Positions 11,740 to 13,635 of a stretch of DNA of 63,859 nt are shown piece by piece. A model generated the notes under the pieces. It saw only the letters and a list, made by a program, of their open reading frames with translations, had not been told where the DNA came from and made no database searches. The DNA comes from Candidatus Ventrenecus stercoripullorum (GTDB lineage: Bacteria; Bacillota_I; Bacilli_A; RF39; UBA660): contig DVGF01000038.1 in NCBI GenBank assembly GCA_018712835.1, positions 1-63,859 of the forward strand, in the 5' to 3' direction. The translations under genes were made by a program, and so were the position numbers. The number at the start of each line of letters is the position of its first letter. Positions within the stretch are counted from its first letter, which is position 1.

Positions 11740-11768
11740 TTGACATTAACCACCAATTTTGGTAATAT
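11740..11768 (+). promoter_or_regulatory. Promoter of the tRNA Val-Thr-Tyr-Gln-Lys operon
   Basis: TTGACA (11740-45), 17-nt spacer ending in TGg, TAATAT (11763-68). Confidence 0.6.
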
Positions 11769-11787: not shown

Positions 11788-11864
11788 GGGCGTTTAGCTC
11801 AGTTGGTTAGAGCATCTGCCTTACAAGCAGAGGGTCTGCGGTTCGAGTCCGTAAACGCCCACCA
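11788..11864 (+). tRNA. tRNA-Val(UAC)
   Basis: Cloverleaf GGGCGTT..AACGCCC, anticodon loop CTTACAA, T-loop TTCGAGT, encoded CCA. Confidence 0.95.
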
Positions 11865-11911
11865 TTATTTTTTTTGCCGAAATAGCGTAATTGGTAGCGC
11901 AACTGACTTGT

Positions 11912-12541
11912 GGGATAGAAGCCTAGTGCTTGTTGAACTATCTTGCACCTATAATTAGAAATGATTATAGTGGACGTCGCTAATTCGGGGAAAGCTAAGT
12001 AAACTGAAGGGGGATTATGGATTGCAAAAATTGTGGTAAACCATTAAAAAGAGGTAAAAGCTATTGTAGTAATGCTTGCCAACATCATTATGAATATAAA
12101 GAATATATTTATAAATGGAAAAATGGTTTAGCCAATGGCATGAAAGGAAAATATCAAGTATCCAATCACGTACGGCATTACTTATATGAAAAATATAATT
12201 ATCGCTGTGCATTATGTGGATGGAGCAAAATAAATCCTTTTAGCAATATTATTCCATTGGAAATTGAGCATATTGATGGCAATTATCTAAACAATTCAGA
12301 ATCCAATTTAACACTTTTATGTCCGAACTGTCATTCATTGGCTGCAACTTATAAAGGTGCAAATAGAGGAAATGGTAGAAAAGACAGAAAAAGATACAGT
12401 TTATATGCCAATCCCGAGCTAAAGGAAAATCCTTGAGTGTAGAGACTTTATACGACGAACCTAAGTCAACAATAAATTGATATGGTTAAGAGAAAGTCCA
12501 GACTACAAACACATTGTGGTAGTGAAAACTATAGTAGTACG
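11912..12541 (+). mobile_element. Group I intron (IC3-like) with embedded homing-endonuclease ORF
   Basis: It follows an exon U and ends in G. TAATTCGGGGAAAGCTAAG (11981-11999) resembles the P4/P5 core of the Azoarcus tRNA intron. CCAGACTACA (12498-12507) and AAACTATAGTAG (12526-12537) resemble the R and S/P7 elements. Confidence 0.8.
12017..12436 (+). CDS. HNH homing endonuclease (intron-encoded)
   Basis: N-terminal Cys cluster CKNCGKPL...CSNAC. HNH core LEIEHIDGNYLNNSESNLTLLCPNCHS. Strong RBS AAGGGGGA. Confidence 0.85.
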   Translation: MDCKNCGKPLKRGKSYCSNACQHHYEYKEYIYKWKNGLANGMKGKYQVSNHVRHYLYEKYNYRCALCGWSKINPFSNIIPLEIEHIDGNYLNNSESNLTLLCPNCHSLAATYKGANRGNGRKDRKRYSLYANPELKENP

Positions 12542-12589
12542 AATCAGTGGGTTGGGGGTTCGAGTCCCTCTTTCGGCACCATTTTTATT

Positions 12590-12673
12590 GGAGGGATAGC
12601 GAAGTGGTCAAACGCGGCAGACTGTAAATCTGTTCCTTCGGGTTCCATGGTTCAAATCCATGTCCCTCCACCA
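12590..12673 (+). tRNA. tRNA-Tyr(GUA)
   Basis: Acceptor GGAGGGA/TCCCTCC, loop CTGTAAA, long variable arm, CCA encoded. Confidence 0.95.
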
Positions 12674-12683
12674 TTATATATAT

Positions 12684-12759
12684 TGCCTCGTAGCCAAGTG
12701 GTAAGGCATCAGACTTTGACTCTGACATTCCGGTGGTTCGAACCCACCCGAGGCAGCCA
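12684..12759 (+). tRNA. tRNA-Gln(UUG)
   Basis: Acceptor TGCCTCG/CGAGGCA, loop CTTTGAC, CCA encoded. Confidence 0.95.
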
Positions 12760-12770
12760 TTCTTATTTTT

Positions 12771-12846
12771 GGTTCGCTAGCTCAGTAGGTAGAGCATTTG
12801 ACTTTTAATCAAAGGGTCTCGGGTTCGAATCCCGAGCGAGCCACCA
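12771..12846 (+). tRNA. tRNA-Lys(UUU)
   Basis: Acceptor GGTTCGC/GCGAGCC, loop CTTTTAA, T-loop TTCGAAT, CCA encoded. Confidence 0.95.
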
Positions 12847-12857
12847 GTTTATAAATA

Positions 12858-12883
12858 AACCTCGCATGATCGAGGTTTTTTCT
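12858..12883 (+). terminator. Terminator of the tRNA operon
   Basis: Stem AACCTCG/CGAGGTT followed by TTTTTT. Confidence 0.7.
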
Positions 12884-12980: not shown

Positions 12981-13635
12981 ACATCAACGAAATCTAATAA
13001 ACTTGAAAGTTGCTCTTTGATAATTAGATAATGAACCGTATGAAAAACAAGGAGGCAACCTTGGACGGACTATATCTCGTGCTTATTACCTAATAGAGAG
13101 GTCTTTTAGGGGATTGGAGTAGATAATAATAGCAATATTATTGTCGGGACTTACAAAGTAAGAAAAGAGATATGGGTCGTTTAAAGTATTGGTTTATAAG
13201 GCACAGTCCTAATCGTGACAACCACAAACTTCTTTGGTAGAAAACAAAGAGATTCACTTTTCGACTTACTAGGGTGGCTTCCTAGAGAGAAGAAAAGAAT
13301 TAGCCAATAAGTCATTTTGCAGTTGATGTTTAGTGATAAACTATAAGATTAGAAACTGGTTAAAGTAGCACAAATCTGCAGGCCGAAAACGGTATAAGTG
13401 GTAAAGAAACGTTCAATTCGTTTAAGTTTCCTATGCGTGTGAAATTTGGGAGTGCAAGTCTCCTGTAGTGATCGTAGGTAGTTGAAGATTGAAGGTCGCT
13501 CCTTCATGAGGACAACTACTGGCTAGTGGCTGAAATAAAAAATAAACTGGTATTTTAAATGAATGAGAGAATCATCATTATCTAATTATCAAAAAGCAAT
13601 TATCAAAATACAACCGAAACATGGTTGTTTTTTCT
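12981..13635 (+). ncRNA. Large structured non-coding RNA (candidate ROOL-like ornate RNA; family not verified)
   Basis: The track shows no ORF of 60 aa or more on either strand between 12809 and 13671. The unit has its own promoter and terminator. An 18-bp perfect closing helix joins 13017-13034 and 13575-13592. Nested hairpins include 13122-13145 (10 bp, GCAA tetraloop), 13048-13063, 13270-13286, 13407-13423, 13448-13464 and 13478-13519. Confidence 0.65.
13610..13635 (+). terminator. Terminator of the large ncRNA
   Basis: Stem ACAACC/GGTTGT with loop gaaacat, followed by TTTTTT. Confidence 0.7.

Follow-up and report, generated by a model that had tools for sequence, protein, structure and literature searches.

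Classical reviews list four intron-containing bacterial tRNAs and a single tRNA-intron endonuclease, I-Ssp6803I in tRNA-fMet, and the HNH intron endonucleases in a 2007 compilation come from phage protein-coding genes only (PMC1995217). A bioRxiv preprint by K. P. Williams (2020, doi 10.1101/2020.01.27.920355) lists 21 kinds of bacterial tRNAs split by group I introns, including Thr.5Ug and Tyr.4Ug; introns of more than ~400 bp "may contain" genes according to that text, and encoded proteins are not otherwise described there. A paper on a group I intron database (PMC11835236) has nothing specific on tRNA-Thr or HNH. Here, we describe an intron of this kind in a 63,859-nucleotide (nt) stretch of contig DVGF01000038.1 of Candidatus Ventrenecus stercoripullorum (the whole stretch is termed the window herein). 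Positions 11876 to 12581 very probably constitute a functional tRNA-Thr(UGU) gene, split by a group I intron of the IC3 type, which is 630 nt long, lies between tRNA positions 36 and 37, and contains an open reading frame (ORF) for an HNH protein.

With introns allowed, ARAGORN called a split tRNA-Thr(tgt) at 11876 to 12581 with a 630-nt intron from tRNA position 37, giving exactly the two halves that an earlier note, made from the letters of this DNA alone, had joined into a 76-nt cloverleaf. In default mode, ARAGORN reports no gene at these positions. The gene consists of the following parts.

11876 to 11911, + strand: 5' exon of tRNA-Thr(UGU), positions 1 to 36, ending in the anticodon U34 G35 U36 (ARAGORN intron mode, cloverleaf).
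11912 to 12541, + strand: intron of group I (IC3-like), 630 nt, beginning with G and ending with ωG at 12541.
12542 to 12581, + strand: 3' exon of tRNA-Thr(UGU), positions 37 to 76, CCA encoded (ARAGORN intron mode, cloverleaf).

The 5' half reads GCCGAAA...ACTGACTTGT and the 3' half AATCAGT...TTTCGGCACCA; joined, they fold into a regular cloverleaf of 76 nt, in which the acceptor stem is perfect and the anticodon loop reads CUUGUAA and which is called as tRNA-Thr(tgt). The earlier note had chosen the junction by the rule that the exon ends in U and the intron in G, and ARAGORN agrees: the last base of the 5' exon is U (11911), the last base of the intron is G (12541), and this U-1/ωG combination is found in 95 of 95 homologous introns. 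Related genomes have tRNA-Thr(UGU) genes without an interruption, which are identical to the joined tRNA at 62 to 70 of the 76 positions, with the same anticodon arm in most, and the intron-less alleles that the note had suggested looking for do occur there with an identical anticodon arm. The intron-less site reads GCAACTGACTTGT|AATCAGT and, as carried on a duplex, GCAACTGACTTGTAATCAGTGGGTT.

A fold for the intron was derived by comparison with the Azoarcus-type architecture and was tested on 73 distinct introns, with the ORF interior of long introns removed. Its elements in the window are given below.

11909 to 11947, + strand: P1 hairpin, exon UGU and GGGAUAG (11909-11918) with CUAUCUU-GCA (11938-11947).
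11919 to 11931, + strand: P1a sub-hairpin within P1.
11949 to 11970, + strand: P2 hairpin, 9 bp, GAAA tetraloop at 11958-11961.
11975 to 11979 with 12453 to 12457, + strand: P3, CGUCG with CGACG, 100% paired.
11985 to 11990 with 12412 to 12417, + strand: P4, 5' strand UCGGGG (after J3/4 UAAU) with UCCCGA, invariant.
11994 to 11999 and 12404 to 12408, + strand: P5, receptor halves GCUAAG and UAUGC (compare Azoarcus CCUAAG...UAUGG).
12000 to 12006 with 12397 to 12403, + strand: P5a, UAAACUG with CAGUUUA, 7/7 pairs covary; ORF in the terminal loop.
Between UAUGC (12404-12408) and the P4 3' strand (12412-12417), + strand: J5/4, CAA.
12419 to 12437, + strand: P6/P6a hairpin, CUAAAGGA-AAA-UCCUUGAG, changes on both sides in 5/7 pairs.
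12437 to 12457, + strand: R-like element GTGTAGAGACTTTATACGACG, comprising J6/7, the P7 5' strand, J7/3 UAUA and the P3 3' strand; invariant core.
12442 to 12448 with 12494 to 12499, + strand: P7, G12442, bulged A12443 and GACUU 12444-12448 with AAGUCC, invariant.
12458 to 12487, + strand: P8/P8a hairpin, holding the 11-nt GAAA-tetraloop receptor CCUAAG...UAUGG.
12488 to 12501, + strand: S-like element AAGAGAAAGTCCAG, comprising J8/7 AAGAGA, the P7 3' strand AAGUCC, and AG; invariant.
12502 to 12541, + strand: P9 domain, with P9 ACUAC/GUAGU, P9a CAC-AUU-GUG, P9b UAGU-GAAA-ACUA, and the tail ACG ending in ωG 12541.

The model comprises 78 pairs in 15 helices, and 96.3% of the pair cells in the alignment hold standard pairs, versus 36.5 to 41.1% when the partners were slid by one to three columns. 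Compensatory changes, altering both sides of a pair, occur in 42 of the 78 pairs and in all helices, the long-range P3 included, other than P4 and P7, which are invariant; the score for covariation is 0.335, versus 0.140 ± 0.004 in shuffled alignments, and none of 500 shuffles scored as high. The second pair of P3 is AU in 45 sequences, GC in 21, and GU in 7. In P2, both sides change in 8 of the 9 pairs, with 97.4% of the cells paired and an invariant GAAA loop; P5 pairs covary, P8 is 100% paired with two covarying pairs, and P8a has four. The P9 domain forms a three-way junction (12502-12538) with a second, likewise invariant GAAA tetraloop at 12524-12527, and P9, P9a, and P9b are 98 to 100% paired with compensatory changes in each. 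An alternative pairing of the P9 strand ACUAC with the nearer GUAGU (12518-12522) was rejected, as covariation and the comparison with the ORF-less homologue at locus L011 favor the GUAGU at 12534-12538, with P9a and P9b inside. Minimum-free-energy folding of the window intron with its ORF deleted recovered all nested helices (z = -3.46).

The internal guide sequence of P1, which the earlier note could not identify by eye, is GCA at 11945-11947, and the wobble pair at the 5' splice site is U11911·G11945. The UA, GC, and UG pairs of P1 are unchanged in 73 of 73 aligned sequences, and the block UUGCACC, which includes the guide sequence, in 95 of 95 introns; distal P1 and all four P1a pairs show compensatory changes. 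Directly 5' of the guide sequence, UU (11943-11944) can pair with the AA of the 3' exon to form P10. On the 3' side of P1, a UUGAA bulge at 11933-11937 (alignment columns 38-42) is unpaired and almost invariant in the introns of tRNA-Thr and absent in the related copies in tRNA-Tyr described below. No pairing partner of this bulge was found; pairing of UUGAAC with the T-arm GUUCGA was considered and dropped because the variants UGGAAC and UAGAAC are uncompensated and the tRNA-Tyr copies lack the bulge.

Comparison with published introns places this fold in the IC3 subgroup. Three features of a group I intron are present (a P1-P9 core with a P3/P7 pseudoknot, U·G at the 5' splice site, and ωG), as are those of IC3 introns such as the Azoarcus and Anabaena ones: an anticodon-loop site, a compact core without P5abc, and shared sequences in J3/4-P4, J6/7-P7, and J8/7-P7'. 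The double clamp of IC3 introns is found in the sequence as L2 GAAA with a P8 receptor and L9b GAAA with a P5 receptor, and these loops would, by analogy with Azoarcus, make tertiary tetraloop-receptor contacts, L2 with P8 and L9b with P5. Six seed introns from the alignment of Williams, among them the Azoarcus tRNA-Ile intron and a tRNA-Leu intron, can be aligned with the window intron from end to end, at identities of 47 to 58%. The window intron has in common with published IC3 introns the blocks AAUUCGG.GAA (J3/4-P4), CCGAGC (P4'-P6), GUGUAGAGAC (J6/7-P7), and AGUCCAG (P7'), together with both GAAA loops and the terminal G. The stretch TAATTCGGGGAAAGCTAAG (11981-11999), which the earlier note had taken for a P4/P5 core close to that of Azoarcus, spans J3/4-P4-J4/5-P5 and indeed aligns with its Azoarcus counterpart AAAUUCGGCGAAACCUAAG; the assignment of P4 is backed by alignment to Azoarcus and other IC3 introns as well as by the Rfam alignment of L011. 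The R-like element recurs in identical form in Azoarcus and other IC3 introns, as their GUGUAGAGACU block, and is aligned by Rfam to R, and the S-like element is the same as AAGAGAAAGUCCAG of the published intron Sba135.Met.2Ug. The two segments that had earlier been read as R-like (CCAGACTACA) and S-like (AAACTATAGTAG) must be reassigned, the former to J7/9 plus the P9 5' strand and the latter to P9b plus the P9 3' strand, where they covary as P9/P9b.

An exact search with the 19-nt core motif GTGTAGAGACTTTATACGA in one genome per GTDB species yielded 103 stretches, nearly all from uncultured metagenome-assembled genomes (MAGs) labelled Bacilli, Clostridia, Mollicutes/Tenericutes, or Erysipelotrichaceae; about 100 species, uncultured Firmicutes that are mostly associated with the gut, carry the intron. 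In the window, the motif is found at a single place, with 0 occurrences expected by chance. ARAGORN placed it in a split tRNA-Thr(UGU) in 85 cases and in a split tRNA-Tyr(GUA) in 16, and 21 remained uncalled, these totals including 10 HNH-derived loci; almost all of the uncalled matches are Thr or Tyr copies that either run off the end of a locus or escaped detection by ARAGORN. Among the species-representative stretches, about 75 contain the split tRNA-Thr and 16 the split tRNA-Tyr. Three HNH homologues are encoded on ten contigs, all ten of which have this split tRNA-Thr within the same array of tRNAs, and the flanking protein genes differ. The window has a near-identical counterpart in locus L072 (Bacilli MAG BRZ_FK__bin21).

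Introns without the ORF are 222 to 245 nt long and ORF-bearing ones 596 to 630 nt, with two intermediates. The ORF is absent in 52 of 79 Thr introns, in which the full fold is kept. What is left of the HNH ORF in the 336-nt intron of L026 (11-422) is a degenerate stretch within the P5a loop (…CHSLTSTFGG…), and in the 309-nt intron of L063 (178-562), an insertion of ~80 nt forms a long hairpin in the P1 loop.

The motif also marks related IC3-like introns in other tRNAs, in L044 (Woesebacteria MAG LBWB01000033.1, candidate phyla radiation [CPR]) and in the large viral contigs L114 to L120 from IMG/VR; ARAGORN calls in this set included a tRNA-Asn with a 617-nt intron, a tRNA-Lys, and a tRNA-Tyr mis-called as His. 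A match in L033 (Bacteroidia) has no features of an intron and appears to be due to chance.

The ORF that separates the long from the short forms lies, as the earlier note had it, in a peripheral loop behind a ribosome-binding site (RBS).

12017 to 12436, + strand: ORF of 139 amino acids (aa), N-terminal 4-Cys zinc ribbon and HNH nuclease module, in the P5a loop, with the RBS AAGGGGG at 12007-12013.

It starts just 3' of the P5a 5' strand, and its last ~40 nt overlap P5a', P5', P4', and P6, so that the final residues (...YSLYANPEL...) are encoded by the ribozyme core itself. PHROG HNH families match clearly (phrog_1271, E = 6.8e-21). Nine residues do not vary across 47 homologues (C3, C6, C17, C21, C64, C67, H85, N97, and C102), and for C105 and H106, conservation is at least 90%. 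The AlphaFold model (predicted local distance difference test score [pLDDT], 81) has strands at 82-85 and 98-101 followed by a helix at 103-116, which fits a ββα-metal core; the hallmarks of an HNH nuclease, namely, the ββα-metal fold, the His...Asn...His/Asn motif, and zinc-binding CxxC pairs, are thus all present. Pairwise ratios of nonsynonymous to synonymous substitution rates (dN/dS) versus ten homologues are 0.07 to 0.22 (two more comparisons were saturated at synonymous sites), which indicates purifying selection and therefore a functional protein. In a large protein collection, 1639 homologues were found, the best 120 of the 1639 at 59 to 97% identity. The closest phage relative is an unannotated ORF of Enterococcus phage iF6 (MT909815.1 41124-41450; L121 1501-1827), with 57% identity over 78% of the query; it is embedded in the tRNA array of the phage, on the strand opposite to the tRNAs, with its end 13 nt away from a tRNA-Thr.

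Several results weigh against the reading of the locus as a working tRNA gene with an HNH-bearing group I intron. P4 and P7 add no covariation because they are invariant. The Rfam Intron_gpI model has no match in the window at its gathering score, nor at E ≤ 10 on 11850-12600, and on the 3' half alone it reaches only 8.3 bits (E = 7.3). None of 17 loci matches at the gathering score of 50 bits, the ORF-less homologues falling below it as well. For the encoded protein, the Pfam HNH score is marginal (21.1 bits versus a cutoff of 21.4), the best Foldseek neighbors in the PDB are HNH nucleases (McrA, Cap5, and the Cas9 HNH domain) with weak scores (E at least 4e-3) and no homing endonuclease among them, and a PDB sequence search gave no related solved homing endonuclease, only marginal DotN and IscB matches at E of ~0.1. 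Finally, the case for splicing is drawn from sequence, and the search for a second, intact tRNA-Thr(UGU), which found none, covered the 64-kb window.

The Rfam results have a ready explanation. The match is lost on the window because the 420-nt ORF in P5 breaks the model, and on L011, which lacks the ORF, Intron_gpI aligns over its full length (1-253) with 36.8 bits and E = 4.5e-8, giving the same assignments of P3, P4, P5, P6, R, P8, S, and P9 as the derived fold. Since 36.8 bits are fewer than 50, we do not count this as a match to Intron_gpI (RF00028) at its gathering score. Lack of a significant hit, which the earlier note had named, together with a lack of spliced tRNA-Thr reads, as a refutation, would accordingly be a false negative on the window. 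According to Williams (doi 10.1101/2020.01.27.920355), the seed of Intron_gpI is without any bacterial sequence, and that work used a cutoff of 18 to 20 bits combined with an ARAGORN split-tRNA call and U-1/ωG; introns of the present lineage pass this operational test and thereby qualify as group I. The earlier identification as a group I intron thus holds, on the strength of the ARAGORN intron-mode call, the complete P1-P9 model with its covariation, the L011 match, and the IC3 alignments.

What the HNH protein does is a separate matter. Most likely, the 139-aa protein is a homing endonuclease that would cut intron-less tRNA-Thr(UGU) genes and spread the intron by repair. The ORF is patchily distributed, with ORF-less, decayed, and intact forms coexisting, and truncated or mutated copies occur in L039, L041, L078, and L096, besides the remnant in L026; the ORF-less majority, the decayed copies, and the intron-less alleles fit the homing-endonuclease cycle of invasion, decay, and loss. 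It is unlikely, in our view, that the intron is a genuine group I intron whose ORF no longer encodes a homing endonuclease but a maturase or an RNA chaperone required for splicing, or else a protein that is inactive or has been domesticated. The overlap of the ORF 3' end with P5a', P4', and P6 couples protein and ribozyme and would suit such a role, as would purifying selection on the ORF, its seemingly vertical position, always in the Val-Thr-Tyr array, and the marginal Pfam score. Set against this, the ribozyme is independent of the protein, since the 52 ORF-less Thr introns keep the full fold; conservation covers the catalytic residues H85, N97, and H106 as well as both CxxC pairs; patchiness with decayed copies is what a homing cycle predicts; and homologues occur as free-standing genes in phage tRNA arrays.

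Far less probable still is a dead, split tRNA pseudogene whose work is done by another tRNA-Thr copy, a view that would draw on the sequence-based nature of the splicing argument, the limited range of the intact-copy search, and the missing Rfam significance on the window itself. Both exons are intact here and in about 100 species, the fold is maintained by compensatory changes in 42 pairs, and none of 95 introns departs from U-1, ωG, or the guide sequence; a pseudogene would not keep ribozyme pairing across lineages whose HNH proteins differ by 30 to 40%, and no other tRNA-Thr was found within the 64-kb window. An insert of another type with a superficial likeness to group I (a group II intron, a protein-spliced bulge-helix-bulge intron, or an HNH-bearing insertion element) has the Rfam failure at the gathering score as its only support and is scarcely credible given the full-length Intron_gpI alignment of the homologue, the core blocks identical to those of Azoarcus and other IC3 introns, the pseudoknotted P3/P7 architecture with a covarying P3, and exon junctions at which inspection of the sequence found no terminal inverted repeats, target duplication, or bulge-helix-bulge.

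For the functional, intron-split tRNA-Thr gene, a splicing pathway can be proposed, in which the intron would be self-splicing, as its sequence predicts. The gene would be transcribed within a Val-Thr-Tyr-Gln-Lys operon, and the intron would fold so that P1 sets the U·G at the 5' splice site, with the exon UGU on the guide GCA. Docking of the L2 GAAA on the P8 receptor and of the L9b GAAA on the P5 receptor would clamp the P3-P9 and P4-P6 domains together. An exogenous guanosine bound in P7 would then attack the 5' splice site, after which ωG (12541) would take its place and the 3'-exon AA would pair with UU (P10), allowing ligation of the exons to the 76-nt tRNA.

The same ribozyme is found in tRNA-Tyr(GUA) between positions 35 and 36, at CUGU|AAA (L015, L024, L056, L092, L096, and L101). 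With this site, the exon bases at the junction, UGU|AA, are identical in Tyr and Thr (CUUGU|AAU), and given C32, U33, and a purine at 37, only the Thr(UGU) and Tyr(GUA) loop contexts should be able to hold UGU|AA. Long Tyr introns carry a different cargo, an ORF of 125 to 133 aa of the PD-(D/E)XK type in the P1 loop (Pfam PDDEXK_5, E = 5.6e-17; I-Ssp6803I family). In genomes with both introns (L039, L041, L045, L095, L096, and L097), the Thr and Tyr ribozyme bodies are 95 to 99% identical, and in most of these genomes this identity exceeds that to the corresponding introns of other genomes, which suggests gene conversion or recent transposition between the adjacent Thr and Tyr genes. The tRNA-Tyr of the window itself (12590-12673) has the UGU|AA site and is uninterrupted. 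In L093 (3970-4140), the P9 region of the Thr intron runs directly into the tRNA-Tyr 5' half (…ACAAACATGTGGTCAAACGCGGCAGACTGT|GATC…), with the Thr 3' exon and the start of Tyr missing; this junction reflects either recombination between two intron copies or mis-assembly across a repeat.

We tentatively suggest, as a possibility that we rate somewhat below an even chance, that one IC3 lineage moves between the two UGU|AA loops (after position 36 in Thr[UGU] and after position 35 in Tyr[GUA]), with the site set by the invariant UU-GCA via reverse splicing or ectopic conversion. The unrelated endonucleases (HNH in P5a and PD-(D/E)XK in P1) would have been gained independently, and copies in the same genome would be kept 95 to 99% identical. 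If true, this would be a case of natural, still active RNA-guided site selection by a bacterial group I intron, with modular endonuclease exchange, in gut Firmicutes.

In the window, the split gene belongs to a tRNA array in the order Val, Thr (with the intron), Tyr, Gln, Lys, which spans 11788-12846 and, judging from the signals at its two ends, is probably transcribed as one operon.

11740 to 11768, + strand: strong promoter-like site upstream of the tRNA array, TTGACA, 17 nt, TG-TAATAT (consensus scan 10/12, extended -10 TG).
12857 to 12878, + strand: terminator-like hairpin and T run after tRNA-Lys, the likely end of the operon.

Directly 3' of the tRNA operon lies a full-length ROOL RNA at 13012-13594 on the + strand (Rfam RF03087, 180.7 bits, E = 6.6e-39), with its own promoter-like site (13003-13032) and terminator-like hairpin (13610-13628).

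Nothing here overturns current understanding, and the kind of intron is already known, since Williams (doi 10.1101/2020.01.27.920355) catalogued the class computationally. The earlier note's statement that a Thr(UGU) host in a Firmicute with an HNH passenger is not a textbook case is true of textbooks; that preprint already lists Thr.5Ug. As far as we could find, this lineage, its HNH passenger, and the Thr/Tyr pairing are undescribed in the literature. The chief practical value concerns annotation: the gene escapes both ARAGORN in default mode and Rfam at its curated threshold, so that genomes of the clade appear to be without tRNA-Thr(UGU) and often without tRNA-Tyr, and routine annotation of genomes with the split tRNA-Thr or tRNA-Tyr would probably miss these genes. 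Missed tRNAs can bias estimates of completeness, analyses of codon usage, and conclusions about changes in the genetic code. The lineage also provides a large natural alignment of a compact Azoarcus-like ribozyme (222 to 245 nt without the ORF) with two alternative endonuclease cargoes, and the Thr and Tyr sites sharing UGU|AA offer a tractable system for how group I introns choose new sites.

Endonuclease-bearing tRNA group I introns, exemplified by the cyanobacterial I-Ssp6803I, are hereby extended to Firmicutes and to the HNH family. I-Ssp6803I of the Synechocystis PCC 6803 tRNA-fMet intron is a PD-(D/E)XK enzyme of the same family as the PDDEXK_5 ORF of the tRNA-Tyr copies, whereas the window ORF encodes an HNH/zinc-ribbon protein and lies in the P5a loop. 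With the phage enzymes I-HmuI, I-BasI, I-TwoI, and I-TevIII and with free-standing phage HNH proteins, the window shares an HNH ββα-metal nuclease in or beside an intron that is, or here is predicted to be, self-splicing; at 139 aa, its protein is small, without the long DNA-binding tail seen in I-HmuI, and its host gene is a tRNA and its intron IC3 rather than IA.

With Williams' Thr.5Ug, the window intron shares the host isotype, loop position, and U-1/ωG and would be named Thr.5Ug, and the name Tyr.4Ug would fit its relatives in tRNA-Tyr (site CUGU|AA). The logic of discovery was also alike, combining an ARAGORN split tRNA with a sub-threshold Intron_gpI match. The Thr.5Ug seed of that work (Rba53), however, interrupts a tRNA-Thr(GGU); it is rich in GC and shares 47% identity with the window intron, and the Tyr.4Ug seed (Mba143) has a core, GAUAACGGUGAAA, different from that of the present lineage.

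The likeness to the tRNA-Ile(CAU) intron of Azoarcus sp. BH72 (IC3; Ile2.5Ug) extends from the insertion site after the third anticodon base (loop position 5), the U-1/ωG, and the 3-bp guide to the P2 GAAA with the P8 CCUAAG-UAUGG receptor, the P9 GAAA with the P5 receptor, the lack of P5abc, and the identical blocks AAUUCGG.GAA, CCGAGC, GUGUAGAGACU, and AGUCCAG. In contrast to Azoarcus, the host of the window intron is a tRNA-Thr(UGU) of low-GC Firmicutes, and the overall identity is 52%; its long P1 (10 bp) bears an additional hairpin, P1a, and the conserved UUGAA bulge, its P3 is shorter (5 bp), J7/3 is UAUA, P9 is a three-way junction, and the P5 terminal loop is replaced by the 420-nt HNH ORF. 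The window intron is in the same structural class as the Azoarcus tRNA-Ile and the cyanobacterial tRNA-Leu introns.

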